From Akkermansia muciniphila (GTDB taxonomy: Bacteria > Verrucomicrobiota > Verrucomicrobiia > Limisphaerales > SXTU01), in NCBI GenBank assembly GCA_945874145.1, contig CAMCFN010000004.1, positions 5,407 to 69,406 on the forward strand: 64,000 nucleotides of DNA, written 5' to 3'. This document shows, piece after piece, positions 5,888 through 57,395 of the stretch. Both the position numbers and the translations under genes were made by a program. Every line of letters starts with the position of its first letter. The first letter of the stretch is position 1. Below the pieces are notes generated by a model. The model did no database searches. It saw only the letters and a program-made list of their open reading frames with translations, and had not been told where the DNA came from.

Positions 5888-5968
5888 GGCCGAACTCCAC
5901 AGTTGAAGGACCACTACCCGAGGCACATCTTACGTGTGGTGACATGAACTGAAACGCACGTTCACGCT

Positions 5969-35474: not shown

Positions 35475-36998
35475 ATGAAAAAACTCCTGCTCACTCTGTT
35501 GGTCGCTGGCTCCTTTGCCACCGCATTCGCTGCCGCGCCTGCCCAGCCCAACATCGTCATCATGCTCGTGGATGACATGGGCGTGATGGACACCTCGGTG
35601 CCGTTTCTTACGGACGAGGCGGGCAAGCCGAAGCGGTATCCGCTCAACGATTACTACCGCACGCCAAGTATGGAGCGGCTCGCAGCCCGTGGCATTCGCT
35701 TCAACAACTTCTACGCCATGAGCGTGTGCTCGCCCACGCGCATCTCCATCATGACCGGCCAGAACGCGGCGCGGCATCGCACGACGAACTGGATCAACCC
35801 CGACAACAACAACGCCGGCCCAAGCGGCCCGTCGCAGTGGAACTGGCGTGGCCTGAAGCAGGGCGACGTGACGTTGCCCCGCCTCCTGCAGGCGAACGGC
35901 TACCGCACCATCCACGTCGGCAAGGGTCACTTTGGCCCGCGCGACTCCGACGGCGCAGACCCGCGCAACTTGGGCTTCGACATCAATGCCGGCGGAGCGT
36001 CTATCGGCGCGCCAGCAAGCTACTACGGCACGCAGGATTTCGGTCTCAAGACGAAGAATGCAAAAGCCGGCGTGCGCGGCCTGGAGAAGTATCACGGTCA
36101 GGAAATCTTCCTCACCGAGGCGCTCACACTCGAAGCCAACACGCACGTCGCCGACGCGGTGAAGGCCGACAAACCATTCTTCCTCTACTTCGCGCAATAC
36201 GCCGTCCACGCACCGTTCAACTCCGACTCACGCTTCGCCGCGCACTACGCAAACTCCGGGAAACCCGCGAACGCGCAGGCCTTCGCCACGCTCATCGAGG
36301 GCATGGACAAGTCGCTTGGCGATGTGCTGAACCAGCTCGAAAAGTTAGGCGTCGCGGAGAACACGCTGTTTGTCTTCCTCGGTGACAACGGCTCCGACGC
36401 GCCGCTTGGGCACCAGCACGAGGTTGCCTGTGCCGCGCCGTTGCGCGGGAAGAAAGGCTCGCACTACGAAGGCGGCGTGCGCGTGCCGTTCATCGCCGCG
36501 TGGGCCAAGCCGGATGCGAACAACGCCTTCCAGAAACGCCTGCCCATCGCCGCCGGATCCATCCAGAGCCAGCAGGCCGCCGTCTATGACATGTTCCCCA
36601 CCCTCCTCGCGCTCACCGGCAAGCCCGCTCCGGCGAACCACGTCGTTGACGGTGCGCGCCTCGACACGCTGCTCACCGGCAAGCGCGATGCGAGCCGCGA
36701 AGAATCGTTCCTCATGCACTACCCCCACTCGCCGCACCGCACCGACTACTTCACCACCTACCGCAACGGCGATTGGAAAGTCATCTACCACTACTTCCCG
36801 GGCGAGGTGTCCGAGAGCTCCCACTACCAGCTCTTCAACCTAAAGGCCGACCCGTTCGAGCAGAAGAACCTCGCCACGACTGAACCGACCCAGCTCAAGC
36901 GATTGATGCAGGGCCTCGCCGCTGGCTTGGAGAAACAAGCCGCCGTGTATCCGGTGGACAAGGGGACGAAGCTCGCGCTGAAGCCGAAGTTGCCATGA
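35475..36998 (+). CDS. Cys-type sulfatase
   Basis: Signal peptide MKKLLLTLLVAGSFATAFA. NIVIMLVDDMG. Signature VCSPTRISIMTGQN. An alternative ATG lies at 35460. Confidence 0.9.
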   Translation: MKKLLLTLLVAGSFATAFAAAPAQPNIVIMLVDDMGVMDTSVPFLTDEAGKPKRYPLNDYYRTPSMERLAARGIRFNNFYAMSVCSPTRISIMTGQNAARHRTTNWINPDNNNAGPSGPSQWNWRGLKQGDVTLPRLLQANGYRTIHVGKGHFGPRDSDGADPRNLGFDINAGGASIGAPASYYGTQDFGLKTKNAKAGVRGLEKYHGQEIFLTEALTLEANTHVADAVKADKPFFLYFAQYAVHAPFNSDSRFAAHYANSGKPANAQAFATLIEGMDKSLGDVLNQLEKLGVAENTLFVFLGDNGSDAPLGHQHEVACAAPLRGKKGSHYEGGVRVPFIAAWAKPDANNAFQKRLPIAAGSIQSQQAAVYDMFPTLLALTGKPAPANHVVDGARLDTLLTGKRDASREESFLMHYPHSPHRTDYFTTYRNGDWKVIYHYFPGEVSESSHYQLFNLKADPFEQKNLATTEPTQLKRLMQGLAAGLEKQAAVYPVDKGTKLALKPKLP

Positions 36999-38485
36999 AC
37001 TCACCCTCCGCCTGCAATCTCCGCCAGCACTCCGCCTCCCGCCGGGACTTCCTCTGGCAACTCGGCGGCGGCCTCGGCGGCGTGGCGTTGACCGCGTTGC
37101 TTGCGGAGCAGGCTGCATGCGCCGCCGCCCAGACGCCAGACCCCATCCCCCATCCCCAAAACCCGCTCGCTCCCAAGCCCGCGCCACACCCCGCCCGCGC
37201 TCGCGCCGTCATCCAAATCTTCTGCCCCGGCGGCCTGAGCCATGTGGACTCGTGGGATTGGAAGCCGGAGCTGGCGAAGCGCACGGGCAAGCCGTTTGAC
37301 CCCACGGGCACGGTGCAATTCTTCGCGTCCAAGCCCGGCAACTGCCAAGGCAGCTATTGGCCGTTCCGCCAGCACGGGCAGTGCGGACGCTGGATGAGCG
37401 ACTTGTTCCCGCAGTTTGCCGCGTGCGTGGACGACGTCGCGTTCATCCACTCCATGCAGAGCAAGTCCGCGCTGCACGGTCCGGCGATGTTCATGGCCAA
37501 CAGCGGCTTCATCCTGCCCGGCTTTCCGAGCATGGGCGCGTGGGTCACCTACGGCCTCGGCAGCGAGAGCGAGAACCTCCCCGCGTTCGTCGTGCTGCCC
37601 GACCCGCGCGGCCTGCCGCCCGGCGGCGTCATCAACTGGGGTGCGGGCTTCCTCCCCGCCGTGCATCAAGGCACGCCGCTCAACACCGACCCCGAGCTCC
37701 CGCCCATCGCGGACCTGTTTCCGCCGAAGAACTTCGCCGGCATCACGCCGCAGGGCGAAGTGGCCGGGCGCAACTTTCTCCAAACCCTGAACCGTCAGCA
37801 CGCCGCAGCGCGCGCGGGCAACACGGAACTCGACGCCCGCATCGCCGCCTACGAGCTGGCCGCGCGGATGCAACTCAGCGCACCCGAAGTCACCGACCTG
37901 CGCGGCGAGAGCGACGCGACGAAGCAGCTCTACACCCTCGCCGATGAGGACATCGGGCCGTTCGGTCGCCAATGCCTGCTGGCGCGGCGGCTGGTCGAGC
38001 GCGGCGTGCGCTTCGTGCAGATTTTCTGCGGCGCGGAAAACACGGGCGCGAAGAAAATCCGTCCGAACTGGGACAGCCACGAAGACCTCGTCCGCGACCA
38101 CGGCTACTGGGGCCGCGTGCTGGACACCGGCGCGGCGGCGTTGCTTACGGACCTCAAGGCGCGCGGCCTGCTCGACTCGACGCTCGTCATTTGCACGTCG
38201 GAGTTCGGTCGCCAGCCCGGCGCGCAGGGCAAGGGCCGCGACCACAACGCCGGCGCGTTCACCGCGTGGCTTGCGGGCGGCGGCATCAAGGGCGGCACGG
38301 CTTACGGCACGACGGATGAACTCGGTTCCAAGGCCGAGGAGCACCCCGCATACAGCTACGACCTCCACGCCACCGCGTTGCACCAGCTCGGCGTGGACCA
38401 CGAGCGCCTGAGCTTTTACCACAACGGCGTCCAACGCCGCCTCACCGACGTGCATGGGCATGTCGTTCGGGAGATTTTGGCGTGA
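36995..38485 (+). CDS. DUF1501 family protein with twin-arginine leader
   Basis: ATGA overlap with the sulfatase stop. SRRDFLWQLGGGLGGVALTALLA. SEFGRQPGAQGKGRDHN. Confidence 0.85.
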   Translation: MNSPSACNLRQHSASRRDFLWQLGGGLGGVALTALLAEQAACAAAQTPDPIPHPQNPLAPKPAPHPARARAVIQIFCPGGLSHVDSWDWKPELAKRTGKPFDPTGTVQFFASKPGNCQGSYWPFRQHGQCGRWMSDLFPQFAACVDDVAFIHSMQSKSALHGPAMFMANSGFILPGFPSMGAWVTYGLGSESENLPAFVVLPDPRGLPPGGVINWGAGFLPAVHQGTPLNTDPELPPIADLFPPKNFAGITPQGEVAGRNFLQTLNRQHAAARAGNTELDARIAAYELAARMQLSAPEVTDLRGESDATKQLYTLADEDIGPFGRQCLLARRLVERGVRFVQIFCGAENTGAKKIRPNWDSHEDLVRDHGYWGRVLDTGAAALLTDLKARGLLDSTLVICTSEFGRQPGAQGKGRDHNAGAFTAWLAGGGIKGGTAYGTTDELGSKAEEHPAYSYDLHATALHQLGVDHERLSFYHNGVQRRLTDVHGHVVREILA

Positions 38486-41700: not shown

Positions 41701-43002
41701 TTATGCCAGCACCTGCGTTATGGGCTTGATGCCGGGGTTCACCAGCGGGATGGGGCGCGCGCCGACGTGGTATTCCTTCTTCGGGTTCACGCCGATGGCG
41801 GCGAGCACCGTCGCGAAGAGTTCGCCCGCGCCCACCTGGTCTTCCACCACCGTCTGGCCATCCTTGTCCGTCTTGCCGAAAACCGCGCCGCCCTTGAGGC
41901 CGCAGCCGAACATCGCCGCGCTCCACGCGTTCGCGAAGTGGTCGCGGCCGAGGCTGGCGTTGATGGCCGGCGTGCGGCCGAACTCACCCACCGCCAGCAC
42001 CAGCGTGCGCTCCAGCAGCCCGCGCTGCTTCAGGTCGTCGTGCAGGGCGGACATCACGCGGTCCAGCTCCGGCACCATCTCCTGGTGCGTCTCGAAGTTC
42101 TGCCCGTGGCTGTCCCACCACGCGCGGCTCACGCGCACGAAGGGCACGCCCGCCTCGACCATCCGCCGCGCCATCAGCGCCTGCTCGCCGAAGAGCGTCG
42201 GGCCATAGGGCTCGCGCGCCTTGGCTGGTTCCTGCGACAGGTCGAAGAGCGTCTCGCTGCTCATCAGGCCGTGGACGCGCGCGTAGGCGTTCGCGTGGCT
42301 CTTCACCGGCCCGGTGCCGTGCCCGGCGACGAACTGGCTGTTAATCAACTGCTGCAACTCCGCGCGCGCGTGGTGGTCCAGCTCGGTGATGGACTCCAGC
42401 CGCTTCAAGTTCGGCGGCGTCATGCTCTCGGCGAGCTTCATCGGGGCGTAACGCGCGCCGAGGAAGCTGGAGCCTTGCCGCGAGAAGTCGCGCCCCTCGG
42501 TGGCGGCGTAGAAGGAAACGTAGTCGGGCACCTTGCTGTCCGCGCGGCCCAGCTCGCGCGCGAGCACCGCGCCCATGTCGGGATAGCGCAGACTCGGCTC
42601 GTCCGCCCGGCCGCGCATCATGAGCTGCGCGGCCCCGCCGTGGTCGCCGTTCCGGGTGTTTAGCCCGCGGATGACGCAGATGTCCTTCATGCGCTTGGCC
42701 ATCTGCGGCATCAGCTCGCTGATGTGGACGCCCGGCACGGAGGTGGGGATGGCCGCGAACGGCCCGCCCGTGGGCCGGCCCGGCTTCGGGTCCCACGTCT
42801 CCAACTGGCTCGCACCGCCCGCCAGCCAGAGCAGGATGACGCTCTTGCCGCCGGCCTTGAGCGTGTCGTTCAGCGCCGGTGTGGCGAAGGAATGCACCGC
42901 GCCGATGCCGCTGGCGGCCAAGCCCGTGCCCGCGCCGAGCGTGCGGAGGAAGGCGCGGCGGCTGACGTCGTGGTCGGAGGAGCCGCAGAAGTGGGAGGTC
43001 AT
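41701..43002 (-). CDS. DUF1501 family protein with twin-arginine leader
   Basis: SRRAFLRTLGAGTGLAASG, GGASQLETWDPKPGRPTGGPFAAIPTSVPGVHISEL, GEFGRTPAINASLGRDHF. Closest in-window paralog of 2849..4138. Confidence 0.85.
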   Translation of the reverse strand: MTSHFCGSSDHDVSRRAFLRTLGAGTGLAASGIGAVHSFATPALNDTLKAGGKSVILLWLAGGASQLETWDPKPGRPTGGPFAAIPTSVPGVHISELMPQMAKRMKDICVIRGLNTRNGDHGGAAQLMMRGRADEPSLRYPDMGAVLARELGRADSKVPDYVSFYAATEGRDFSRQGSSFLGARYAPMKLAESMTPPNLKRLESITELDHHARAELQQLINSQFVAGHGTGPVKSHANAYARVHGLMSSETLFDLSQEPAKAREPYGPTLFGEQALMARRMVEAGVPFVRVSRAWWDSHGQNFETHQEMVPELDRVMSALHDDLKQRGLLERTLVLAVGEFGRTPAINASLGRDHFANAWSAAMFGCGLKGGAVFGKTDKDGQTVVEDQVGAGELFATVLAAIGVNPKKEYHVGARPIPLVNPGIKPITQVLA

Positions 43003-43047
43003 AGAATTAAGTTTGGCAGCACGGTGATAATCTTTCTAGGCAAGGCT

Positions 43048-43839
43048 CTAAGGAAGCTCAACGCGTTTGACTCCCGCAGGTGGAGTTTCAGTTACGTCCT
43101 CAACAACCACCTTCCCGTAACCAAGGCCATTCTTCCGGTCAGCTTCAACGCGGCAAAAGAGCGTCAGGCCCTTTTCAGCCTTCGTGCTCATGCAGTTGTA
43201 TTGAGCGTTGGCCGGCGTTTCCTTCAAGTCATCGAAGGCAACCCCATCGGGGACTTTGGCAAAACCAAAGCCCTTGCTGGAGCGATGGAAGTCTAGAAAC
43301 GGTGTGTCGCCGAACATGTCGCCCCCTGATGCCTTCTGCCAAATCTGCCAGTCATGCTGGAAGTAGGGCAAACTCCCCCAGTGGGCGACCGCTGCTCGCC
43401 CCTCCTTGATGCTTTTGCCGGAAAGCTCTCGACCGCCCGAAGTGTTGAAAACGTAGCGCAACACCACGTATCGCTTGCGGTAAAGGTTTACTTTCATCTC
43501 ACTCGGCTCTCCCTTCCCTTGCTTCACTGTCAGACTCTGCCACTGAGCCGCATAGCCCGGAGAAGAGAAGAAAACCAAGTAGTCTCCGTCAGCCAAATCA
43601 GACAATCCCAGCGCGTTTGAACCTGGCTGCGCATCATCCAGCTTTTTCAGAACTTTAGGCGTCAGCTCCCCGGTCTGAATTTCCACCTTAATCTTCGCTG
43701 ACCGCATGTCCTCCATGGACAGATTAAGACGTAAGGAGGATTTAGTCGCCTCTGCTCCATCCTTTTGAGCCTGCTGGCCGTGAGCCCCCTCGTGAGAAAC
43801 GGCTACCATCAGTAGGATTGTCAGCGTAAGCGTTCGCAT
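43048..43839 (-). CDS. hypothetical secreted protein (263 aa), low-GC
   Basis: Signal peptide MRTLTLTILLMVAVSHEGAHG. GC about 52% in sampled 60-nt windows versus about 70% in the flanking DUF1501 gene. A possible CarboxypepD_reg-like segment (GDYLVFFSSPGYAAQWQSLTV). No confident family. Confidence 0.6.
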   Translation of the reverse strand: MRTLTLTILLMVAVSHEGAHGQQAQKDGAEATKSSLRLNLSMEDMRSAKIKVEIQTGELTPKVLKKLDDAQPGSNALGLSDLADGDYLVFFSSPGYAAQWQSLTVKQGKGEPSEMKVNLYRKRYVVLRYVFNTSGGRELSGKSIKEGRAAVAHWGSLPYFQHDWQIWQKASGGDMFGDTPFLDFHRSSKGFGFAKVPDGVAFDDLKETPANAQYNCMSTKAEKGLTLFCRVEADRKNGLGYGKVVVEDVTETPPAGVKRVELP

Positions 43840-43857
43840 GGCTCTCAGTGTGGGAAG

Positions 43858-43929
43858 CTAGTGATTAAACCGAAACTCCGTGCTGGTCAGGAGCGGCAAC
43901 GCGACCTGGCGCACGGTGTCGGTCGGACG
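43858..43929 (-). pseudogene. orphan 3' fragment (23 codons + stop) of a DUF1553-type gene
   Basis: Encodes RPTDTVRQVALPLLTSTEFRFNH*, versus RPTEAVRQVVWSLLTSTEFRFNH* at the end of the intact gene (44702...). The first 38 nt are 37/38 identical to 44702-44739. Confidence 0.6.
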
Positions 43930-43979
43930 AACCAGTGCGGAGTGCGGATACACCCAGTTCTTCCCGGCTTGGCCAACCG

Positions 43980-44222
43980 TTATTCCAGTGCGTCGTAAGG
44001 CTCCGCCGGCACGTTCGGCACCTTGGCGAGCACCCGCTGGAAGTCCGCTCGTGAACCGAGCGCTGCCTCGCGGCGGAGATACTCGGACCCCGCCAGCATC
44101 GCCGCGAGCTTCTCGCCCGCAGCGGCGGCAACCAACTGCTCCACGGAGGTGCCGCCGGCGTCCGCGAACTCGCGAAGCTTGCCGTGGAGGGAATCCGGTA
44201 GCTGGATGGTCAATGTGCTCAT
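43980..44222 (-). CDS. ribbon-helix-helix type antitoxin (80 aa)
   Basis: MSTLTIQLPDSLHGKLREFADAGGTSVEQLVAAAAGEKL has RHH-like beta-alpha-alpha features. The ATG overlaps the PIN gene stop (ATGA). The track ORF extends artificially to 44441. Confidence 0.7.
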   Translation of the reverse strand: MSTLTIQLPDSLHGKLREFADAGGTSVEQLVAAAAGEKLAAMLAGSEYLRREAALGSRADFQRVLAKVPNVPAEPYDALE

Positions 44223-44641
44223 GGTCGTAGTCCAGTAAGCCGCAAAAATGCGGCGGGTGCAACTGCGCGAACGCCGAAGCTCGCGGCGCTTGGGAAGTGA
44301 CGAAGGTTGTGGGTGACGATGTGCGTGGCCCCCGCTGCCACGGCCAATTCCAGCAGCATATCGTCCTTCGGGTCCGGCAGAAAGGAAGGCCAGAGGAAGT
44401 GAATCTCCTGGGCGTGGGCAATCGAGGCGAGGTAGCGGCACAGACCCTGGATGTCTGCCTGTGTGAAGGCTGGAGGCACCAACCCTGGGCGCAGGAGCAC
44501 GTCTTGATACTCAAGATAAACCGGCACCGAAAGAGCCAGCTCCCAACCGGAAACTGGCAGTGCGGACACAAGCGCGTAGGACGCACCCTGCGGCGAGCGG
44601 AGCGCGGCAACGAGAACATTGGTGTCGAGAACGAATCGCAC
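44219..44641 (-). CDS. PIN-domain toxin (VapC-like, PIN_3 type)
   Basis: MRFVLDTNVLVAAL...DDMLLELAVAAGATHIVTHNLRHF carries the acidic PIN residues (D6, E, D, N-type C-terminal block). Confidence 0.85.
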   Translation of the reverse strand: MRFVLDTNVLVAALRSPQGASYALVSALPVSGWELALSVPVYLEYQDVLLRPGLVPPAFTQADIQGLCRYLASIAHAQEIHFLWPSFLPDPKDDMLLELAVAAGATHIVTHNLRHFPSAASFGVRAVAPAAFLRLTGLRP

Positions 44642-44701
44642 GCTACAGATTGGTGGCAGTTCGCCAGTCGCATATCAAGGCAGAGGTTCGATGCGTTCCA
44701 C

Positions 44702-46696
44702 CTAGTGATTAAACCGAAACTCTGTGCTGGTCAGGAGCGACCACACCACTTGCCGCACCGCTTCGGTCGGGCGGTCGCTGCGTTTGTCGAGGTAGTCAGC
44801 AAGCACTTGCAACTCTCGCGCTTCGGGCGGGCGGGAGAGGACGTTCCACACGGCGGCGGTGGCCAGTTCGCGGTTGTCCTTGAGGTCCAGCAGCCCTTTG
44901 AGCAGGCGGTCGTTCGAAAGAGCCAGCAGCTCGCGCTGGACGCGGTCGCTGTTGCTGAAGAGCAGCGCCTCGTCCACGCCCACTTGGAAATCATCGCCGG
45001 GGCGTTCGAGCGAGCTGGCCCAGCCCTGGCCGGCGCGCTCCACCTGCTCGATGAACTTCTCCCGCTCCTCCGGTTTCGCATCCGACTTGAAGGCGTCCGG
45101 GCTGGTGACGGCGAACTGCAACGACGCACCGACCTGCTGCGGCGTGAGCGCCCGCGGCTGCGCCACTGCGAAGAGTCCCGCGTCCGGTCGCGCGCCGTCC
45201 CACCGGCTGCTGCGCGCGTAGGCGGCGCTTTGCACCAGTCCGCGCACGAGCCGGCGCACGTCGTAATCGTGCTGCACCAGGTCGCGGGCGAGCCACTGGA
45301 GCAGCGCGGGATGGCTCGGCGCGTTCTGTCCGTGCATCTGGTCCACCGGCATCACCAGGCCGTGGCCGAAGAGGCGTTGCCAGACTTGGTTCACCACCGC
45401 GCGGGCGAAGAAGCCTTCATGGCCGGACTTCAGGCTGGCCTCGGCGAGCAGCGCGCGGCGGCTGAACTTGGGCGCGGGCATGGGCTGCTTGTTCTTCTTC
45501 GTTTCTTCGAGCAGCCGTTTCTCCTCCTTCTTCTGCGCCTCGTTCGGCTCGGGCGCGGGCGGTTCCTCGACCGCGTCGCCGCTCAGGAACATCAGGCGCG
45601 CCTGCTTGGTATCGCCCGCCGTGGTCTTGAAGCTGATGGTGCCGTAGTCGCGCTCGGCCACGAAGTCGCCGTGCTCGAACGTGCGGCTGAAGAAGGACTT
45701 CATGCCGTAGTAATGGTCCTGCTTCCACGCGGGCACGAGCGGGTGGTCGTGGCACTGGGCGCAACTGATGTTCACGCCGAAGAAGCGCACGCTCACGTCG
45801 GTGACCAGCTTGTCGAGGTCCTTGGCGCGCGAGCGGAGGAAGGCGTCCGCACCCTTCGTCTCCGGCGTGGCGGTGTCCCCGGTGATGACTTCCTTGAAGA
45901 CGCGATCCCAGCGGCGGCCTTCGGAAATGGCCCGCGTGAGGTAGTCGCGGAAGCCACTGCCCTGCCCCTCGGTCAGCAGCCACTCAAACTCCGTCACCTG
46001 ATGCCGCACGAAGCCGGGCGCGGCTACCAACCGCTCCACGAGCCGGGAGGCCTTGTCCGGCTCGGTGGCCACGACATACGCGCGCACTTCCGCCGTCGTC
46101 GGGATGCGACCGGCGAGGTCGAGCGTGAGGCGGCGGATGAAGTTCGCGTCGCTCGCGGCAGGCGCGGGCTTGACCTTGGTCTGCGTGAGTTTCGCGGCGA
46201 CGTAGTGGTCCACGACCTCATGAATCGGACGCGCGGCGGGGATCAGGTCTTTCTCGGCAACCGTATCCCACCAAGGCTTGGCATCCTTCGCAGCAGTGGC
46301 TGATACCTCGGGGAAAGGCGCGCCAGCCTTCACCCACTTCTCGAAATTGGCGATGACCTCGTCAGGCAGTTTCCCATCCGGCGGCATGAGCTGGTCCTTG
46401 TCCGGGTGGCGGAGGGACTTGAGCAGGAGGCTGTCATCGGGCTTCTGCGATGAGATGGCCGGGCCGGTTTCGCCGCCCTTGAGCAGACCCTCGCGATGGT
46501 CCAGGCGCAGGCCACCCTTGAGCTTCACGGCCTTGGCGGAATGGCACTTGTAGCAATGCTCGGCCAGCGCGGGGCGAATCTTCTCCTCGAAGAACGTCAC
46601 GGAGCCGGGCGGGCTGGCCGCCATGACGGCGGCACTGCCCGCCGTGAGTAACGTGGCCAAGACAGAGTGAAGGAGTTGTTGGCTGGAGCCGTGCAT
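44702..46696 (-). CDS. PSCyt (CxxCH) + DUF1549 + DUF1553 protein
   Basis: ATG 46696 (MHGSSQQLLHSVLATLLTAGSAAVMA signal). FFEEKIRPALAEHCYKCHS, RRLTLDLAGRIPT, ISCAQCHDHPL, C-terminus LLTSTEFRFNH. The track ORF to 47182 would overlap the GntR gene. Confidence 0.85.
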   Translation of the reverse strand: MHGSSQQLLHSVLATLLTAGSAAVMAASPPGSVTFFEEKIRPALAEHCYKCHSAKAVKLKGGLRLDHREGLLKGGETGPAISSQKPDDSLLLKSLRHPDKDQLMPPDGKLPDEVIANFEKWVKAGAPFPEVSATAAKDAKPWWDTVAEKDLIPAARPIHEVVDHYVAAKLTQTKVKPAPAASDANFIRRLTLDLAGRIPTTAEVRAYVVATEPDKASRLVERLVAAPGFVRHQVTEFEWLLTEGQGSGFRDYLTRAISEGRRWDRVFKEVITGDTATPETKGADAFLRSRAKDLDKLVTDVSVRFFGVNISCAQCHDHPLVPAWKQDHYYGMKSFFSRTFEHGDFVAERDYGTISFKTTAGDTKQARLMFLSGDAVEEPPAPEPNEAQKKEEKRLLEETKKNKQPMPAPKFSRRALLAEASLKSGHEGFFARAVVNQVWQRLFGHGLVMPVDQMHGQNAPSHPALLQWLARDLVQHDYDVRRLVRGLVQSAAYARSSRWDGARPDAGLFAVAQPRALTPQQVGASLQFAVTSPDAFKSDAKPEEREKFIEQVERAGQGWASSLERPGDDFQVGVDEALLFSNSDRVQRELLALSNDRLLKGLLDLKDNRELATAAVWNVLSRPPEARELQVLADYLDKRSDRPTEAVRQVVWSLLTSTEFRFNH

Positions 46697-46864
46697 GTGG
46701 ACAAACGCCCGCCTGACTGGAGGCGAGTTGGTGCCGATTTCAGCAATGCCGACTAGGGGCTTTGCACGGGTATTCAAGCGGGCGCCGGGTTGATCAGCGC
46801 TGGCAAAGGGACCCGTCCACTGCCAGTCGGGATACCGTCTCCGCAAAGCTCCGACAAAACCCGG

Positions 46865-46892
46865 TTGACAGCCAAAACTTGAGTGGTATGAC
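46865..46892 (+). promoter_or_regulatory. sigma70-like promoter candidate for the GntR gene
   Basis: TTGACA (46865-70), a 16-nt spacer ending in TGg (extended -10), then TATGAC (46887-92), 9 nt before the ATG. This would give a near-leaderless mRNA. GT-N3-AC (GGTATGACC) overlaps the -10. Confidence 0.3.
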
Positions 46893-46901
46893 CTCACACC
46901 A

Positions 46902-47618
46902 ATGACCCTTTCCGCCATCGCTCGGCCCGCCTCGCTGGTCGAGGACGTCTGCCAGCGGCTCGCCACGGAAATCCGCGCGGAGCGCAACGGCGGCGACGGC
47001 TGGCTGCCTCCTGAGCGCCAGCTCGCCGAGCAACTGGGCGTGAGCCGCACCGTCATCCGCGAAGCGACCAAGCGGCTGGAGTTGCAGGGGCTGATCGAGG
47101 TCCAGCACGGCATCGGCATCAAGGTGGTGGACAAGCTGCACAAGCCGCTCAACGGCTCGCTGGCCCTGCTGATTCCCGACACAGCGGACCGCCTGCGCCA
47201 GCTCGTCGAGGTGCGCCTGCTGGTGGAGCCGGAAGTGGCCCGCCTCGCCGCCGAGCGCGTGAAGCCAGTCGCCCTGCGAGCCTTGAAGCAAGTTCAAGCC
47301 CGGCTTGCCGCCGCCACGGACATGGAGGAGGCCATCGAGCTGGACCTTGAGTTTCATCGCCAACTCGCCCGCGCTTCCGGCAATGAAGTGCTGGTGTTGC
47401 TGCTGGAGTCGCTCGGCGACCTGGGCCGCAAGAGCCGCTCAGTGACGGTCTCCACCACGGGCATCGCGCGCGCCCACGAGCAGCATGAGGCCGTGTTGGC
47501 CGCCGTCGCGGCTGGCGATGCGGACCGTGCGCATGCAGCCATGCAGTTTCACATCCGCGAAGCGGCTGCGGACCTCGCCCGTCTGCTCAAGCAGCCCGCC
47601 GCCAAAGCCACCCGTTGA
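46902..47618 (+). CDS. GntR family transcriptional regulator (FadR/FCD subfamily)
   Basis: wHTH LPPERQLAEQLGVSRTVIREATKRLELQGLIEVQHGIGIKV plus a helical FCD-like C-domain. Confidence 0.9.
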   Translation: MTLSAIARPASLVEDVCQRLATEIRAERNGGDGWLPPERQLAEQLGVSRTVIREATKRLELQGLIEVQHGIGIKVVDKLHKPLNGSLALLIPDTADRLRQLVEVRLLVEPEVARLAAERVKPVALRALKQVQARLAAATDMEEAIELDLEFHRQLARASGNEVLVLLLESLGDLGRKSRSVTVSTTGIARAHEQHEAVLAAVAAGDADRAHAAMQFHIREAAADLARLLKQPAAKATR

Positions 47619-47622
47619 ACGC

Positions 47623-49122
47623 ATGAAGAACGATTCCCCCTTCCACCGCATCGCTCCCAGCCGCCCCCAGTCACGCCGCGAGTTCCTCTGGCAAAGCGGC
47701 GGCGGCCTCGGCGGCATTGCGCTGGCCGGCCTGCTCAGTCGCGCCGGTGCGCTCGCCGCGAATCCCCAGACCCCAGACGCCAGACCCCATTTCCCCGCCA
47801 AGGCCAAGCGTGTCGTCCAGCTCTTCATGGCCGGCGCGGCAAGTCATGTTGACCTCTTCGACTTCAAGCCCGAGCTGGTGAAGCGCGATGGGCAGGCCAG
47901 CGAGTTCGGCGAGTCGGTCGAGGCGTTTCAAAATGGGCTGGGGCCGTGGAAGAAGCCGGTGTGGGACTTCAAGCCCTACGGCCAGAGCGGCAAGATGTTG
48001 AGCGACGCAGTAGCCGATCTTGGGCACGTGGCGGACGAGCTGGCCTTTATCCACAACCTCGTCGGCAAGACCGGGGTCCACTCGCAGGCCACGTTCTTGC
48101 AGGCGACAGGCTTCAACCTGCCCGGCTTTCCCGGCATGGGCAGTTGGGTCAGCTATGGCCTCGGCACGGAGAACGAGAACCTCCCGACCTTCGTCGTGCT
48201 CCCCGACCATCGCGGCCTCGCCAGCAACGGCACGAAGAACTGGGATGCCGCCTTCCTCCCGCAGCAGCACAGCGGCACAGTGATTTATCCCGGAATGGAG
48301 ACACCGATTGCCGACCTGTTTCCTCACAAGAAGGGCGACTTCGTCACGCGCGACAGCGAGGCGGCCGGGCACGCGGTCATGGCGCGATTGAATCAGGTTC
48401 ATGCCGCGTCGCGCGCGGGCGACGACCGGCTGGAATCCCGCATCCGCAGCTACGAACTTGCCGCGCGGATGCAACTCGCCGCGCCCGAGGCGCTCGACAT
48501 CTCGAAGGAGCCCGACCACCTGCTGCGCGCCTATGGCATCAACAACACGCGCAAGGAATGGCCCAAGGAAATCAACGCCGAAGAAGAGGCCGACATTTTC
48601 GGGCGCAAGTGCCTTGTCGCCCGCCGGCTCTTGGAGCGCGGCGTGCGCTTCGTGCAAATCTGGAGCGGCAACGATAACGGCTTCCCGCGCCGCAACTGGG
48701 ATTCGCACGAGGACATTGAGCGTGATCACGGCCCGCTCGCGCGCGGCATGGCGCGCGGTGCCTCCGCCCTCATCCAAGACCTCAAGCAGCGCGGCCTGCT
48801 CGACGACACCATCATTCTCTGGACCACTGAGTTTGGCCGGATGCCCAGCACGCAGGGCGGCAAGGGCCGGGACCACAACCCGTTTGTGTTCACGAACTGG
48901 CTCTGCGGCGGTGGCATCAAGGGCGGGGTCACGCACGGGGAGAGCGACCAATGGGGTTACAAGCCGTTGAACCGCAACGCGCCCACAACCTGCTACGACA
49001 TCCACGCCACCATGCTGCATCTGCTGGGCATCCACCACGAACAGCTCACTTTCCGACACAACGGCATCGACCGCCGCCTCACCGACGTTCACGGCGAAAT
49101 CATCAAAGACTTATTGGCATGA
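47623..49122 (+). CDS. DUF1501 family protein with twin-arginine leader
   Basis: ATG 47623, 4 nt after the GntR stop. SRREFLWQSGGGLGGIALAGLLS. TEFGRMPSTQGGKGRDHN. The track ORF opens at 47485 inside GntR. Confidence 0.85.
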   Translation: MKNDSPFHRIAPSRPQSRREFLWQSGGGLGGIALAGLLSRAGALAANPQTPDARPHFPAKAKRVVQLFMAGAASHVDLFDFKPELVKRDGQASEFGESVEAFQNGLGPWKKPVWDFKPYGQSGKMLSDAVADLGHVADELAFIHNLVGKTGVHSQATFLQATGFNLPGFPGMGSWVSYGLGTENENLPTFVVLPDHRGLASNGTKNWDAAFLPQQHSGTVIYPGMETPIADLFPHKKGDFVTRDSEAAGHAVMARLNQVHAASRAGDDRLESRIRSYELAARMQLAAPEALDISKEPDHLLRAYGINNTRKEWPKEINAEEEADIFGRKCLVARRLLERGVRFVQIWSGNDNGFPRRNWDSHEDIERDHGPLARGMARGASALIQDLKQRGLLDDTIILWTTEFGRMPSTQGGKGRDHNPFVFTNWLCGGGIKGGVTHGESDQWGYKPLNRNAPTTCYDIHATMLHLLGIHHEQLTFRHNGIDRRLTDVHGEIIKDLLA

Positions 49123-50457: not shown

Positions 50458-53214
50458 ATGCAACGCACCCTAGCAACGGCATTCGCGATCTGCGGCCTGG
50501 TTCTGGCCAGCGACGCAGCCGAGCACCGTGGCAAGGCACCGTCGGGCGACTGGTGGTCGCTGAAGCCGTTGGTGAAACCGGCCGTTCCTCAAATCGGCAA
50601 CCGGCAGGCGGCAAGCGCCAATCCCATTGACGCCTTCATCCTGGCCAGGCTCCGCGAGCAGAAGCTCACGCCCTCGCCCGCCGCCGACCGGGGCACGTTG
50701 ATTCGCCGGCTGACCTTCGATTTGCACGGTCTGCCGCCCACGCCGGAGGAGGTGGACCGGTTTGAGCAGGACGCCGCCGCGCAAGCGTATGAGCGACTGG
50801 TGGAGCGGCTGCTCGCCTCGCCACGCTACGGCGAGCGTTGGGCGCGGCACTGGCTGGACGTGGTTCACTACGGCGAGTCGAACGGCTTCGGCATGGACCG
50901 GCCAAGGCTGCAGGCGTGGCCATATCGGGACTACGTCATCGCCGCCTTGAACACCGACAAGCCCTACGCCCGTTTTGTGCAGGAGCAGCTCGCGGCGGAT
51001 GCGTTGTTCCCCGAGGACGCGGCGCTCGTGCCCGCGCTCGGCTTTGCGGCGGCGGGACCGTTCAACCAGAGCGCGCTCGTCGAGCAGGTGGACGGCACGG
51101 ACTGCAAGCGCATGGCGCTGAACCTCGACCGCGATGACATGGTCGCGAGCACGGCCAGCACGTTTCTCAGCCTCACGGTGCATTGCGCACGTTGTCATGA
51201 GCACAAGTTCGACCCGATTTCCCAGCAGGATTACTACCGGCTCCAAGCGGTCTTCGCGGGCGTGGGCCGCGCCGAACGGGCCTTCGATGCCGATCCCCAA
51301 GTTCGCACCCGGCGCGCCGGACTGCGCGGGCTCATCGCGGACTTGGAGAAAAATCCCGACGCCCACCCAGCGACCGCCGCCGAGCGCGACTCGCTCGCCA
51401 CCGCGCAGGCGGCGTGGGAAAAGTCCCTCGCCTCGCAGACGGTGAACTGGACTCTGCTGCCCGTGGAGCAAGTCACCTCCACGAACAGCACAACTACGTT
51501 CACCAAGCTGGATGACGGCTCGTGGCTGGCCGCCGGCACTGCGGCGGACAAGGATGTTTACACCGTGCGAGCGAGGGTCACCCTGCCCACAGTCACCGCC
51601 CTTCGGCTCGAAGTGCTCCCGGATGACCGCCTCCCGACTCGTGGTCCCGGTCGCCAGGACAATGGCAATCTGCACCTCTCGGAAATCCGCGTGAGTTTGG
51701 CGGGGACGAATGTGGCCGAGAAGCCGAAGTCGATTGCCCTGCGCAACGCCTCGGCGGATTTCAACCAGACGGGCTGGGGCATCGAGCGCGCCTTGGATGG
51801 CAAACCTGAGACGGCGTGGGGCATTCATCCGCAGGTTGGCAAGCTGCATCACGCGGTCTTTGAGTTGACCCAGCCGTCCGCTGCAACCAACGGGGTGACG
51901 CTGGTCATTCAACTGGATCAACTTCACGGCCAGCGGCATCTCATCGGGCGCTTCCGCCTGTCGGCCACCGACAAGCCCCTGCCTGTGCGGGCGCCCACGC
52001 TGCCGGTGGAGCTGCTCGCCAAGCTGGCCCGCCCGGACACCGAGCGCACCGAGGCGGAGCGCAAGCAGCTCTTCGACCTGCATCGCCTGGTGTTCTTGCG
52101 GGAACAGCTCGCGCAGCTTCCCGCCGAGCAGCGGGTCTGGGCCATCGCTGCGGACTTCGCCCCCCTGCGTAACTACAAGCCCACGAAGGAGCCGCTGCCC
52201 ATCGCGGTGCTGCACCGCGGCGACATCAAGCAGCCGCTGGCCACGGTCGGCCCCGGCGCGCTCGCAGCGGTGGGCACGCTGCCGGCGGAGTTTGCGCTCG
52301 CGAATGCGCAGGACGAATCCGCTCGCCGGGCCGCGCTGGCCCGCTGGATCACGGCCCCGGAGAACATGCTGACCTGGCGCAGCATCGTGAATCGCGTCTG
52401 GCACTGGCACTTCGGTCGCGGCCTGGTGGACACCCCGAACGACTTCGGCCGCATGGGTTCGCCGCCCACTCATCCGGAGCTGCTGGACTGGCTGGCCATC
52501 GAGTTTCGCGACAACGGCGGCACACTGAAGCAGTTGCACAAGCTCATCGTGACCAGCGCCACCTATCGGCAGATCTCCGCCACCGCCGAGGCAGGAAGGC
52601 GGAACCCTGGGATGCTCCCTGTCCGCCTTCAAACCTCGCCGGCTGCGACCGATTCGGACAACCGCTTCCTCTGGCGCATGAACCGTCCGCGCCTCGATGC
52701 GGAGGCCGTCCGCGACGCGCTGCTGGCCGCCAGCGGCAAGCTGAACCTCACGATGGGCGGTCCCTCGGCCATGCAGTTCAAGTTCGATGATCCGAACGTG
52801 AACGTCAGCCCGCGCGTGGACTACGCCGCCTTCGATCCCGACAGTCCGGCCAGCTACCGGCGCAGCGTGTATCGCTTCCTGTTTCGCAATTTGAACGATC
52901 CGCTGCTGGAAGCGCTGGACGCTGTGGACCCCTCGCTTTCCACGCCCAAGCGGAACTCGACCATCACGCCGCTTCAAGCGCTGTCGCTCTGGAACAACCG
53001 GTTCGTCCTGCGTCAGTGCGAGCACCTGGCCACGCGCGTCGAGCAGGAGGCGACCGGCCTCGAAGCCCAGATCACCCGCGCCTTCAGCCTGCTCTGCGCC
53101 CGCGCGCCATCGCGAGAGGAGATGGCACTGCTCACCGAGCACGCCCGCCGTCATGGTTTGGCCCACGCGTGCCGCGTGGTGGTGAACCTGAACGACTTCC
53201 TGTTTGTGAACTGA
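50458..53214 (+). CDS. DUF1549/DUF1553 (PSD1-type) protein
   Basis: [66 protein letters not shown] central beta-rich module reads ERALDGKPETAWGIHP. Confidence 0.85.
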   Translation: MQRTLATAFAICGLVLASDAAEHRGKAPSGDWWSLKPLVKPAVPQIGNRQAASANPIDAFILARLREQKLTPSPAADRGTLIRRLTFDLHGLPPTPEEVDRFEQDAAAQAYERLVERLLASPRYGERWARHWLDVVHYGESNGFGMDRPRLQAWPYRDYVIAALNTDKPYARFVQEQLAADALFPEDAALVPALGFAAAGPFNQSALVEQVDGTDCKRMALNLDRDDMVASTASTFLSLTVHCARCHEHKFDPISQQDYYRLQAVFAGVGRAERAFDADPQVRTRRAGLRGLIADLEKNPDAHPATAAERDSLATAQAAWEKSLASQTVNWTLLPVEQVTSTNSTTTFTKLDDGSWLAAGTAADKDVYTVRARVTLPTVTALRLEVLPDDRLPTRGPGRQDNGNLHLSEIRVSLAGTNVAEKPKSIALRNASADFNQTGWGIERALDGKPETAWGIHPQVGKLHHAVFELTQPSAATNGVTLVIQLDQLHGQRHLIGRFRLSATDKPLPVRAPTLPVELLAKLARPDTERTEAERKQLFDLHRLVFLREQLAQLPAEQRVWAIAADFAPLRNYKPTKEPLPIAVLHRGDIKQPLATVGPGALAAVGTLPAEFALANAQDESARRAALARWITAPENMLTWRSIVNRVWHWHFGRGLVDTPNDFGRMGSPPTHPELLDWLAIEFRDNGGTLKQLHKLIVTSATYRQISATAEAGRRNPGMLPVRLQTSPAATDSDNRFLWRMNRPRLDAEAVRDALLAASGKLNLTMGGPSAMQFKFDDPNVNVSPRVDYAAFDPDSPASYRRSVYRFLFRNLNDPLLEALDAVDPSLSTPKRNSTITPLQALSLWNNRFVLRQCEHLATRVEQEATGLEAQITRAFSLLCARAPSREEMALLTEHARRHGLAHACRVVVNLNDFLFVN
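50592..50626 (+). repeat. degenerate heptanucleotide array (AATCGGC AACCGGC AGGCGGC AAGCGCC AATCCCA) in frame
   Basis: Read directly. The paralog 54672 has only two units at the homologous site. The 21-nt difference equals exactly three units, and it sits after an identical 22-nt flank. Confidence 0.55.
52595..52630 (+). repeat. perfect 9-bp inverted repeat GAAGGCGGA...TCCGCCTTC (18-nt loop) inside the CDS
   Basis: Read directly. It lies in the same post-YRQ(S/I)S linker where the paralog 28647 carries the heptamer palindrome. Confidence 0.6.
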
Positions 53215-54671: not shown

Positions 54672-57395
54672 ATGCATCGCTTCAATCTCTCCTGCCCGCC
54701 GCTGCTGCGGACCCTCTCAATCGCTGCACTGGCTTCCACGCTGGTGGGCTCGGCCCCCAGCGCGGCTGCCGAGGACAAGCCCAAGTCATCGCCCACCCCG
54801 GCAGCGAAGGCCGGCGCCTCGCGTGACTGGTGGTCGTTGAAGCCGCTGGTGAAACCGGCCGTTCCTCAAACCGGCAATCCGATCGATGCCTTCATCCGTG
54901 CGAAGCTCGCGGAGAAGCAGCTTCAGCCCGCACCCGAGGCCGAGCCGCGCGTGTTGATCCGGCGACTCTACTTCGACCTCCTCGGCCTGCCACCGAAGCC
55001 CGAAGAGGTTGCGGAGTTCGAACGGGCCTGCTCAATCGGCGACCGGCAATCGGCAACCAGCAGTCTCGTGGACAAGTTGCTCGCCTCGCCGCACTACGGC
55101 GAGCGTTGGGCGCGGCACTGGCTCGACGTGGTTCACTACGGGGACACGCACGGCTACGACAAGGACAAGCCGCGCCCGAACGCCTGGCCTTACCGCGACT
55201 ACGTCATCCGTGCCTTCAACGAGGACCGGCCCTACGCACGGTTCATCCAGGAGCAGGTTGCCGGGGATGTGCTTTTTCCCAGCACGCGGGATGGCATCGA
55301 GGCGCTGGGCTTCATCGCGGCGGGGCCGTGGGACTTCATCGGCCACGCGGAGGTGCCGGAGACCAAGATTGACGGGAAGATCGCGCGCCACCTCGACCGT
55401 GACGACATGGTCGCCAACACCTTGCAGACCTTCAACAGCCTGACCGTCGGCTGCGCGCAGTGCCACGACCACAAGTTTGACCCCATCCCGCAGCGCGATT
55501 ACTACCGGCTGCACGCCGTCTTCGCCGCGCTGGACCGGGCGGACAAAAAGTATTTTACCGACGCGAAGCTCACGGCGCGCTTTGCCGAGCTGGAGCACCG
55601 TCAACGCACGCTGACCGCGCAGCGCACGGCCTTGGAGAACAAGCCGAAGCTCACTGCCGGCAAGGAACTCGAATCGCTCGACCAGCAAATCGAAGCCGCG
55701 AGCAAAGCCAAGGGCGGGCTCCGTCCCGAGTATGGCTACCACAGCGCCGTCTCACCAACGCAGGTCACGACGAAGTGGGTGCAAGTGGATTTGGGCCGCA
55801 GTGTGGCGATTGACCGCGTGGTGTTGCGGCCATGCTACGATGACTTCAACAAGATCGGCGCGGGCTTTGGTTTTCCGGTGCGTTTCAAGGTGGAAGCCAG
55901 CGAGGATGCGCAGTTTAAGTCGGGCGTGGTGGCCATCGCGGACAAGACCGCAGCGGACTTTGCCAATCCCGGCATCGCACCGCAGATCTTCAAGAGCACC
56001 GGTGCGACGGCGCGCTTCCTCCGCGTCACGGTCACCAAGCTCGCACTCCGGCAGAACGACTACATCCTCGCCCTGGCGGAGGTGCAGGTCTTCGACAGCA
56101 CCGGAAACAACGTCGCGCTCAAGGGCGGCGTCACCGCGCTCGACTCGATCGAGGCCGCGCCGCGCTGGCGAAAGGCCAACCTGACGGACGACGTCGCCCC
56201 CGCCGCCGACAACTCCGGCGCACTGGCCGAACTGCGCGCCAAGCGGGAGGCCCTGCTCGCGAAGTTCACGGACGACACGGCCCGTGCCCAACTCGCCGCA
56301 CTGGCGAAGGACATGGAACACGTGGCGGCGGAATTGAAGCAGTTTCCTAAGCCGGATGTGGTGTATGCCGGCACGGTGCATTATGGCGGTGGGGCCTTTT
56401 CCGGCACGGGACCAGCCGGGGGCAAGCCGCGCGTCATCAAGGTGCTGCATCGCGGGGATGTGAAGCAGCCCAAGGACGAGGTCATTCCCGGCGCACCGGG
56501 CTATCTCACAGGCCTGCCCGGCGAGTTCACGCTGCCTGCCGAGCACGCCGAGGGCGAACGCCGCGCCGCGCTGGCCAGGTGGCTTTCCTCAACCGACAAC
56601 TCGCTGACTTGGCGCAGCATCGTGAATCGCGTCTGGCAGTATCACTTCGGTCGCGGCCTGGTGGAGACGCCGAACGACTTCGGCCGCATGGGCGCGCTGC
56701 CGACGCACCCGGAGCTACTTGACTGGCTGGCCGTCGAGTTTCGCGACAACGGCGGCACACTGAAGCAGTTGCACAAGCTCATCGTGTCGAGCACGACGTA
56801 TCGGCAGAGTTCAAGTGTTCAGCGTGCCGCCGCCACTGACTCCGCTAACTCGCTTCTCTGGCGTCAAAACCGCCGTAAGCTCGACGCCGAGGCGGTGCGC
56901 GATGCGACGCTCTTCGTCGCCGGCAAACTGGATCCGAAGCTGGGCGGACCGGCGTTTCAGGACTTCATCGTCGAGAAGCCGGAACACTCGCCGCACTACC
57001 AGTATCATCTGCACGATCCGGAAGATCCGCGTTCGCACCGGCGTTCCGTGTATCGCTTCCTCGTGCGCTCGCAGACGCAGCCGTTCATGACCACGCTCGA
57101 CTGCGCAGACCCTTCGATGCAGGTGGGCAAGCGCAACGAAAGCGTCTCCGCGCTGCAAGCCCTCGCGTTGTTGAACAACGGACTCATGGTCACGATGTCG
57201 AAACACTTTGCTGCGAAGCTCGACGCGGGCGGCGGCGATTTAAATGCCAAAGTGGAACGCGCCTTCCGCGAAGCGCTGTCCCGAGCGCCCTCACCAGAGG
57301 AAAAGGGCGGCCTCACTGCTTACGCCCAGCAGCACGGACTGGCAAATGCCTGCCGCGTGCTTTTCAACCTGAACGAGTTCGCCTTCGTGGATTGA
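54672..57395 (+). CDS. DUF1549/DUF1553 (PSD1-type) protein with central F5/8 type C (discoidin) domain
   Basis: [59 protein letters not shown]. The central KWVQVDLGRSVAIDRVVLRP...ARFLRVTVTKL...LALAEVQVFD is discoidin-like. Confidence 0.85.
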   Translation: MHRFNLSCPPLLRTLSIAALASTLVGSAPSAAAEDKPKSSPTPAAKAGASRDWWSLKPLVKPAVPQTGNPIDAFIRAKLAEKQLQPAPEAEPRVLIRRLYFDLLGLPPKPEEVAEFERACSIGDRQSATSSLVDKLLASPHYGERWARHWLDVVHYGDTHGYDKDKPRPNAWPYRDYVIRAFNEDRPYARFIQEQVAGDVLFPSTRDGIEALGFIAAGPWDFIGHAEVPETKIDGKIARHLDRDDMVANTLQTFNSLTVGCAQCHDHKFDPIPQRDYYRLHAVFAALDRADKKYFTDAKLTARFAELEHRQRTLTAQRTALENKPKLTAGKELESLDQQIEAASKAKGGLRPEYGYHSAVSPTQVTTKWVQVDLGRSVAIDRVVLRPCYDDFNKIGAGFGFPVRFKVEASEDAQFKSGVVAIADKTAADFANPGIAPQIFKSTGATARFLRVTVTKLALRQNDYILALAEVQVFDSTGNNVALKGGVTALDSIEAAPRWRKANLTDDVAPAADNSGALAELRAKREALLAKFTDDTARAQLAALAKDMEHVAAELKQFPKPDVVYAGTVHYGGGAFSGTGPAGGKPRVIKVLHRGDVKQPKDEVIPGAPGYLTGLPGEFTLPAEHAEGERRAALARWLSSTDNSLTWRSIVNRVWQYHFGRGLVETPNDFGRMGALPTHPELLDWLAVEFRDNGGTLKQLHKLIVSSTTYRQSSSVQRAAATDSANSLLWRQNRRKLDAEAVRDATLFVAGKLDPKLGGPAFQDFIVEKPEHSPHYQYHLHDPEDPRSHRRSVYRFLVRSQTQPFMTTLDCADPSMQVGKRNESVSALQALALLNNGLMVTMSKHFAAKLDAGGGDLNAKVERAFREALSRAPSPEEKGGLTAYAQQHGLANACRVLFNLNEFAFVD
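55034..55061 (+). repeat. degenerate heptanucleotide array (AATCGGC GACCGGC AATCGGC AACCAGC) in frame
   Basis: Read directly. Encodes IGDRQSATS at the site homologous to 28991-29022. Confidence 0.5.

Follow-up and report, generated by a model that had tools for sequence, protein, structure and literature searches.

A toxin-antitoxin cassette, consisting of a PIN_3 family toxin gene and an overlapping ribbon-helix-helix (RHH) antitoxin gene, lies between two copies of the 3′ end of a DUF1549/DUF1553 gene in a 64,000-nt stretch of DNA from Akkermansia muciniphila (NCBI GenBank assembly GCA_945874145.1, contig CAMCFN010000004.1, positions 5,407 to 69,406; hereafter the window, to which all coordinates refer unless another locus is named). 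The arrangement is probably the product of an old insertion with long target duplication just after the DUF1549/1553 stop codon, which has since aged by drift and concerted evolution. The toxin-antitoxin system itself is ordinary, and the insertion is a good multi-lineage example of a little-studied signature. The locus bears on the unsolved integration of toxin-antitoxin systems by offering both a filled and an empty site, four diverged filled lineages and at least four further bracketed insertions at other genes.

A pattern search with the last 38 nt of the DUF1549/1553 gene found two copies in the window, at 43858-43895 and 44702-44739, and none in 100 shuffles of the window, the two copies being identical at 37 of 38 positions with one C/T mismatch. 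Extended without gaps the pair reaches 72 nt (43858-43929 against 44702-44773) at 85% identity, with a start-to-start spacing of 844 nt and an insert of 772 nt between the copies. The 72-nt pair is the sole short-range repeat of its kind in the 64 kb, the other repeat families being accounted for by two tandem paralogous DUF1549/1553 genes. Translated on the minus strand, the distal fragment (copy 2) reads RPTDTVRQVALPLLTSTEFRFNH and the working gene end (copy 1) reads RPTEAVRQVVWSLLTSTEFRFNH, each followed by a stop codon. Only the toxin and antitoxin genes lie between the copies, further open reading frames there being in overlapping frames and without homology support. In this the analysis agrees with an initial annotation of the stretch, made by a model from the letters alone, which had described a duplicated gene end bracketing only a PIN toxin and its RHH partner. 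The repeat-cassette-repeat arrangement occurs in at least eight independent metagenome assemblies, which excludes an assembly artefact.

Copy 1 is the working terminus of the DUF1553 gene, with copy 2 a displaced duplicate that is no longer translated within any gene (Table 1). The peptide encoded by copy 1 is the same as in L016, a relative in which the site is empty (see below). Gene callers on identical contigs (e.g., L001) give a 664-aa DUF1549/1553 product at 44702-46696. An ATG-started open reading frame of 271 aa (43858-44673, minus strand) lies in the frame of the copy 2 fragment and spans the whole cassette in a frame other than those of the cassette genes, such that a gene caller could take it for a gene. 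BLASTP of this in-frame product against the DUF1553 gene found similarity confined to the final 23 residues, and with homology limited in this way it is probably a chance open reading frame of high-GC DNA.

Contigs L016-L021 (including NCBI GCA_965076155.1) carry a homologue, 89% identical, of the 263-aa gene that follows copy 2 in the window, with a single 72-nt copy and no cassette, the 263-aa gene beginning 26 nt past the DUF1553 end. The L016 DUF1553 gene has approximately 94% nucleotide identity to that of the window, both flanks align at 87-95%, and the single 72 nt of the empty site aligns to either window copy. The cassette together with one repeat copy is an insertion/deletion polymorphism in which the target has been duplicated. 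The last 29 nt of copy 2 are identical to the empty site of L016 and the flank runs on into the same downstream gene, indicating that copy 2 is continuous with the ancestral downstream DNA. The initial annotation had suggested comparison with relatives in which the site is uninterrupted, and these cassette-free, single-copy contigs bear out its proposal of an insertion into the DUF1549/1553 3′ end with duplication of the terminus.

The cassette was found at the same site in three more diverged lineages, L112, L111 and L110. The DUF1553 p-distance to the window is 0.08 for L112 and 0.19 for L110, with a range across lineages of 0.06-0.19, while the L111 contig holds only the last ~120 nt of the DUF1553 gene, 89% identical. 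The left repeat boundary of copy 2 (T|CGNCCG) is the same in the window, L112 and L110, indicating that the insertion is old. In L111 the spacer is missing and copy 2 is truncated by its first 12 nt, so that it starts 12 nt further in. Between the window and L112 the synonymous divergence (dS) of the antitoxin gene (0.28) is close to that of the flanking DUF1553 gene (0.26). One old gain with a later precise loss is the simplest reading of this distribution, L110 being an outlier with the same boundary. The lineage tree is star-like. L016 and L018 encode an identical 263-aa protein next to DUF1553 genes that are 5% different, a sign of recombination within the population which limits tree-based dating of the insertion.

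The two parts of the duplication have aged differently. In the window, 10 of the 34 positions in the 5′ arm distinguish copy 1 from copy 2, compared with a single one of the 38 in the 3′ block (Fisher p = 0.002). The 5′ arm in the window has four private changes, all at first or second codon positions and non-synonymous, copy 2 of L112 has other private changes than copy 2 of the window, and the first 50 positions of copy 2 include 21 that vary among the four lineages. Each lineage has its own pattern of decay in the 5′ 34 nt of copy 2, as expected of a non-coding duplicate over such time. At the other end of the repeat, copy 1 and copy 2 both finish in ...CACTAG in the window and in L112 and both in ...CATTGA in L110, with the truncated copy 2 of L111 ending in ...CACCAC without a stop codon. 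Lineage-specific states common to both copies require concerted evolution or repeated duplication, and the homogeneity of the 3′ block suggests either gene conversion limited to the stretch that is still identical or excision and re-integration through the repeats. The locus in this way shows the ageing of such a duplication, with one arm decaying and the other evolving in concert with the working gene end.

Within the 3′ block the 18-mer GGAGTTTCGGTTTAATCA is invariant in the non-coding copy 2 of all four lineages, which are up to 19% diverged, with 0/18 positions variable against 21/50 elsewhere in copy 2 (p = 6e-4), and this 18-nt core may be under constraint. A promoter in copy 2 was considered as the cause of the conservation and rejected, as a consensus scan of 42900-44900 gave no sigma-70-like site.

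Bracketing by duplicated gene ends is not confined to the DUF1553 site. For 81 loci that carry a relative of the toxin, the 300 nt ahead of the toxin gene were aligned locally with the 300 nt past the antitoxin gene and the best alignment was scored, with integron-like arrays (L039-L042, L030, L034, L046 and perhaps L074) left out of the target-duplication count. Outside these arrays 10 of 32 loci, some of them duplicates of one locus, had a bracket score of at least 17.5, with none of 151 positional controls reaching a score of 15. In the clear cases it is the end of the upstream gene that is duplicated, the segment comprising the last ~48 codons and stop (~145 nt) of a ThuA-like gene at L071, the last ~31 codons, stop and a further 8 nt (~101 nt) of an unnamed 592-aa gene at L082, and 26 nt at a sulfatase gene at L070. 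At L106 130 nt of an adh_short gene is duplicated with 98.5% identity and encloses a different PIN cassette. The bracketing repeats vary from site to site in both length (26 to ~145 nt) and sequence. The distal copy usually starts 1-25 nt past the antitoxin stop and the proximal copy stops 30-85 nt ahead of the toxin start. Upstream of the toxin gene some 50-55 nt (TCGAAC..CTTGAT..CACCAAT, aligned in the window, L110, L106, L108, L027 and L069) are common to homologous cassettes at unrelated sites, indicating that the mobile unit consists of the two genes and a short leader.

At L106 (5001-7625) two toxin-antitoxin cassettes are stacked at the adh_short 3′ end. The first is a PIN_3/RHH pair, with a toxin 87% identical to that of the window, and has no flanking repeats; the second is a classical antitoxin-first PIN (PF01850) cassette bracketed by a duplicate of the last 41 codons and stop of adh_short. 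Short cassettes, relatives of the toxin-antitoxin pair among them, form integron-like arrays at L039-L042, L030, L034 and L046, all from freshwater metagenomes; between the cassettes lie imperfect palindromes of 110-130 nt with fold free energies of -64 to -75 kcal/mol and ...AAC / GTT... ends. L074 has three copies (3650-3730, 5863-5939 and 6655-6731) of a ~75-nt segment ending in GACGTT, one of which overlaps the end of a 205-aa gene and two of which bracket a toxin-antitoxin pair, with two copies of a 358-aa transposase-like gene nearby; these repeats may represent either a target duplication or a small cassette array.

The preferred explanation, an old insertion with long target duplication, would proceed as follows. 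A cassette of ~0.77 kb, made up of ~55 nt of its own upstream sequence, the PIN_3 toxin gene and the overlapping RHH antitoxin gene, would have entered directly past the stop codon of the large gene, with the last 72 nt of that gene (23 codons and stop) now lying on either side of it. The insertion, now old, would have passed among related lineages by descent or by homologous recombination, with free drift of the 5′ 34 nt in copy 2 and with the 3′ block kept like copy 1 by conversion or by excision and re-integration. Recombination between the repeats would delete the cassette precisely and yield an empty site such as that of the closest relative. The pair would behave as a selfish addiction module, in which a stable PIN nuclease toxin is neutralised by a labile DNA-binding RHH antitoxin, and addiction would select against cells losing the cassette by repeat recombination. 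The step that makes the duplication would be a host replication or repair process, with template switching offered as a guess, rather than the work of a recombinase.

A number of points weigh against this explanation. The sites informative for the branching order of the window, L016 and L112 are split 18, 15 and 11, which both loss in L016 and horizontal spread of the filled allele would fit. The other bracketed loci yielded no empty sites, so that we infer rather than observe the origin of their repeats from the target, and some repeat-flanked loci are integron-like arrays in which the repeats belong to the cassettes, not to the target. The 18-mer varies less in the non-coding copy (0/18) than in the coding copy (2/18, at synonymous sites), a pattern for which plain gene conversion accounts only loosely and for which a cis-acting site could be responsible. 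To our knowledge, the step that makes the 72-nt duplication is known for no system, and the explanation is to that extent partly description and not mechanism.

A broader form of the explanation may be put forward tentatively, although it is doubtful. Toxin-antitoxin cassettes of Verrucomicrobiota would on this account be autonomous units that enter past stop codons without a recombinase, through template switching or the repair of long staggered breaks, duplicating 26-145 nt as they do so; the duplication would then supply recombination sites for excision, re-integration and spread among relatives, with the invariant 18-mer serving as a cis element. If true, it would provide a testable signature for toxin-antitoxin integration and would make the signature known from restriction-modification units (see below) independent of restriction cleavage. 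If instead the pattern is a mere by-product of ordinary recombination, the locus represents a routine accessory toxin-antitoxin insertion.

A possible, if rather improbable, source of the present structure is re-integration or allele transfer, in which a circle or linear fragment from a related lineage, carrying the cassette and a diverged DUF1553 terminus, would have recombined inside the 38-nt block and left the 34-nt arm as donor DNA. The sharply two-tiered identity of the copies is in keeping with this, as are three states in the arm (positions 12, 15 and 24) that are in common with the distant L110 copies where copy 1 has them in common with L016. The dS of the PIN toxin gene between the window and L112 is 0.57, twice that of the flank, suggesting allele exchange, and the star-like lineage tree is consistent with recombination. 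However, the arm has its four private non-synonymous changes and two states in common with L016, no sampled lineage is donor-like, and the dS of the antitoxin gene matches that of the flank. The excess of dS, confined to the toxin gene, hints at either allele exchange or a different mutation regime in that gene. Allele transfer would also explain spread and homogenisation but not the origin of the duplication, and it is compatible with, not opposed to, an old insertion with long target duplication.

The initial annotation had offered a paralogous gene end as a possible donor of the duplicated terminus, which for the paralogues in the window is contradicted by the comparison of termini. All DUF1549/1553 termini in the window were listed, and the most similar, that of the gene at 215-2746 (...LLTSAEFRFKH), differs at many synonymous sites, with the fragment grouping with its own gene and the orthologues of that gene. 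Age accounts better for the divergent 34-nt arm, given that the insertion is common to lineages up to 19% diverged and that the arm decays differently in each.

The same annotation had favoured an att-like scar, that is the remnant of an integrase-driven element that used the DUF1553 3′ end as its att site, carried a replacement terminus and then lost its integrase and most of its genes. This is unlikely. As at an att-flanked island, there are direct repeats at the 3′ end of a gene and a clean empty site in a relative; the 18-nt core is invariant even in the non-coding copy, and the junction is hot-spot-like, different genes (the 263-aa gene, a TIR_2 gene and an unknown gene) starting right after the core in different lineages. 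Yet, as the annotation had itself noted, no integrase remains, with neither an integrase nor a transposase among the genes called within 6 kb either side of the cassette. All four lineages have the same compact pair of genes as insert, with homologous flanks where these can be compared (60 nt upstream), which does not resemble the remnant of random deletion; for the 50-nt downstream spacer the comparison is limited, as the spacer can be aligned, as homologous, only in part in L112, is reduced in length in L110 and is missing from L111. The working terminus is not of foreign origin, copy 1 being as host-like as copy 2 with 3 and 2 differences, respectively, from L016 in the 38-nt block, which speaks against a replacement terminus brought in by the element. 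Site specificity of the att type fares no better, given that homologous cassettes elsewhere are bracketed by unrelated gene ends of variable length and no common core accompanies the cassette family. Among 113 loci the 18-mer core was found only at the DUF1553 site, and a search of viral contigs for a phage attP gave no match to it. Serial site-specific insertion would be expected to leave the core in a third copy past the 263-aa gene; the local alignment there was no better than for shuffles.

That the distal fragment is instead the last remnant of a decayed neighbouring DUF1553 paralogue, with the toxin-antitoxin genes merely lying between paralogues, is an idea suggested by the multi-copy DUF1549/1553 genes of this DNA, all ending in a similar LL(T/N)..EF.F.. 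motif, and is refuted to the point of being barely credible by the single-copy empty site of a relative without any paralogue remnant, by a terminal block identical at 37 of 38 nt to its own gene where the closest in-window paralogue peptide differs at many synonymous sites, and by BLASTP, which found no DUF1553 homology upstream of the 23 codons, in accordance with the duplication favoured by the initial annotation.

Insertion with long target duplication of restriction-modification units was reportedly described by Nobusato et al. in 2000. Furuta, Abe and Kobayashi (2010; PMC2853133), who cite that study, reported such insertions, which have no mobility gene, with direct repeats of more than 30 bp. 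The repeats vary in length and sequence between insertions, occur only once where a related genome has the site empty, and often span a stop or start codon, which leaves the target gene intact. These authors suspected a part for double-strand breaks made by the restriction enzyme, and put forward a cycle in which insertion is followed by repeat-mediated amplification and by release (PMC2853133). The present locus is alike in that a small selfish unit without transposase or integrase has left its target gene intact, with a single-copy empty site in L016-L021 for the 72-nt repeats, a short insert without a mobility gene, and duplications of variable length at the different sites (26, ~101, 130 and ~145 nt). 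It differs in that the cargo is a type II toxin-antitoxin pair and in its age, which has sufficed for the decay of one repeat arm. RNase activity is the general rule among such PIN toxins, such that the idea of cleavage by the restriction enzyme would not transfer to them. That the signature recurs with cargo other than a DNA endonuclease suggests a host process instead.

A 2020 review has described type II toxin-antitoxin systems that sit between the cistrons of operons that are intact in strains lacking them, with the loci being plastic and the mechanism of integration "unelucidated" (PMC7167474). In these systems, as in the window, the pair is co-oriented with the two functionally linked neighbours that flank it, these neighbours lie side by side in strains without the pair, and other strains carry other accessory DNA at the plastic locus. 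The window locus differs in its toxin-first order and in the long duplication of the upstream gene terminus, which is not part of the description in that review. Full-text searches, of incomplete coverage, found no paper in which toxin-antitoxin pairs are connected with long target duplication other than by citation of the restriction-modification work, and no priority is claimed. Homologues of the window pair (43-56% toxin identity) also occur in integron-like cassette arrays with imperfect palindromes of ~120 nt with AAC...GTT ends, the array relatives L041 and L046 carrying attC-like sites of -75 and -64 kcal/mol; such arrays are a different and already known route by which these pairs travel. 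In contrast, the window repeats are target DNA, single-copy at the empty site, and have no attC-like hairpin. An integron cassette at the window site was rejected, as the 3′ flank has no attC-like fold, the single-strand DNA fold of the 146 nt after the antitoxin gene being no better than for shuffles (z = -0.9).

Table 1. Features of the cassette, its bracketing repeats and the adjoining genes in the window.
Feature	Coordinates	Strand	Remarks
DUF1549/DUF1553 (PSCyt1-PSCyt2-PSD1) gene, insertion target	44702..47182	-	Pfam PSCyt2 2e-35, PSD1 1e-28, PSCyt1 2e-15
Repeat copy 1, working last 23 codons and stop of DUF1553 gene	44702..44773	-	
Left end of cassette, upstream of toxin gene	44642..44701	-	60 nt; 95-98% identical in L111 and L112
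Toxin gene, PIN_3 family	44219..44641	-	140 aa, GTG start; PF13470 E = 3e-17
Antitoxin gene, ribbon-helix-helix type	43980..44222	-	80 aa; downstream of toxin gene
Right end of insert, antitoxin stop to repeat copy 2	43930..43979	-	50 nt
5′ arm of repeat copy 2, decaying non-coding counterpart of codons RPT..S	43896..43929	-	
3′ block of repeat copy 2	43858..43895	-	37/38 identical to copy 1; joined to ancestral downstream DNA
18-mer GGAGTTTCGGTTTAATCA within copy 2	43862..43879	-	counterpart in copy 1 at 44706-44723
263-aa secreted-type protein gene	43048..43839	-	signal-peptide-like start; GC 0.51-0.58 against ~0.67 in flanks
DUF1501 gene, usual downstream partner of DUF1553 gene	41701..43002	-	PF07394 E = 5e-95

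The toxin scores above the cut-off of NCBIfam TIGR00305 ("putative toxin-antitoxin system toxin component, PIN family"), with a match to classical PIN (PF01850) of only E = 0.008. In 24 homologues, at identities as low as 51%, residues D6, D90, D93, D94, E98, T110 and N112 never vary, the five acidic ones answering to the conserved acidic active site of the PIN domain, and plasmid-borne relatives at 44% identity or less bear the same PIN-family toxin annotation. No match for the toxin was found among solved structures searched by sequence. The order of the two genes is reversed as the initial annotation had stated, the toxin gene coming first with an ATGA overlap (tcat on the plus strand, 44219-44222), and the pair is kept together in the same order in more than 50 loci.

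The window antitoxin has no Pfam match below E = 0.01, its best being a weak FitA-like RHH match at E = 0.016, and alone it gave only noise in a sequence search of solved structures. Within its family RHH_1 is matched by 19 of 29 members (best E = 3.7e-6) and RHH_5 by 17 of 29, with the family profile matching ParD at E = 0.008 and CopG and VapB26 weakly (E = 0.2-0.45). The AlphaFold (AF2) model of the antitoxin (pLDDT 84) has an extended N-terminal strand region, two helices and a long C-terminal helix, and its top Foldseek matches are RHH antitoxins, all at E > 0.1, which is not significant for so short a protein. The RHH label of the 80-aa protein is supported at the level of its family, not directly from the window protein. 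VapBC-type modules (FitAB and VapBC26, among the structural hits) likewise pair a PIN toxin that has conserved acidic residues with a small, C-terminally extended RHH protein, and differ in that the window toxin is PIN_3/TIGR00305, not classical PIN, and precedes its antitoxin. No PADLOC defence model matched the toxin, the antitoxin or the 263-aa protein. The pair is accepted as a predicted PIN/RHH type II toxin-antitoxin system with putative toxicity. Against four relatives dN/dS is 0.08-0.15 for the toxin and 0.07-0.15 for the antitoxin (0.07-0.15 overall), and purifying selection acts on both genes.

The cassette separates the large gene from its DUF1501 partner as the initial annotation had claimed, but the credit cannot go to the cassette alone, since the low-GC 263-aa gene separates the two as well, even in the cassette-free relative. 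This gene is present in L016 and absent in L110, where the DUF1501 gene comes directly after repeat copy 2. Its family (36 proteins found) has no match to Pfam, NCBIfam or PADLOC, homologues occur in unrelated contexts such as after a response regulator (L022) and after a sigma factor (L024), and no direct repeats were found flanking it. Rather than belonging to the cassette, the 263-aa gene seems to have arrived separately at the DUF1553|DUF1501 junction, in an independent and lineage-specific insertion. This junction behaves as a hot spot occupied by accessory genes, possibly ones for defence. In L111 a gene for a 282-aa TIR_2 protein with weak PADLOC matches (1006-1854 of that contig) lies right after the distal repeat copy, the junction there (AATCAC|CAC) removing the stop codon of the fragment, and in L112 an unidentified gene starting MSNFSE (2695 onward) occupies the same position.

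Elsewhere the window is rich in related genes. It holds at least five DUF1549/DUF1553 genes, including those at 215-2746, 28647-31469, 50458-53214 and 54672-57395, as well as DUF1501 genes at 36995-38485, 41701-43002 and 47485-49122 and a PSD2-PSD5/PSCyt3 gene at 23320-25914. Two of the DUF1549/1553 genes are tandem paralogues with stretches of 73-92% identity, and all DUF1553 proteins of the window end in LL(T/N)..(E/D)F.F...

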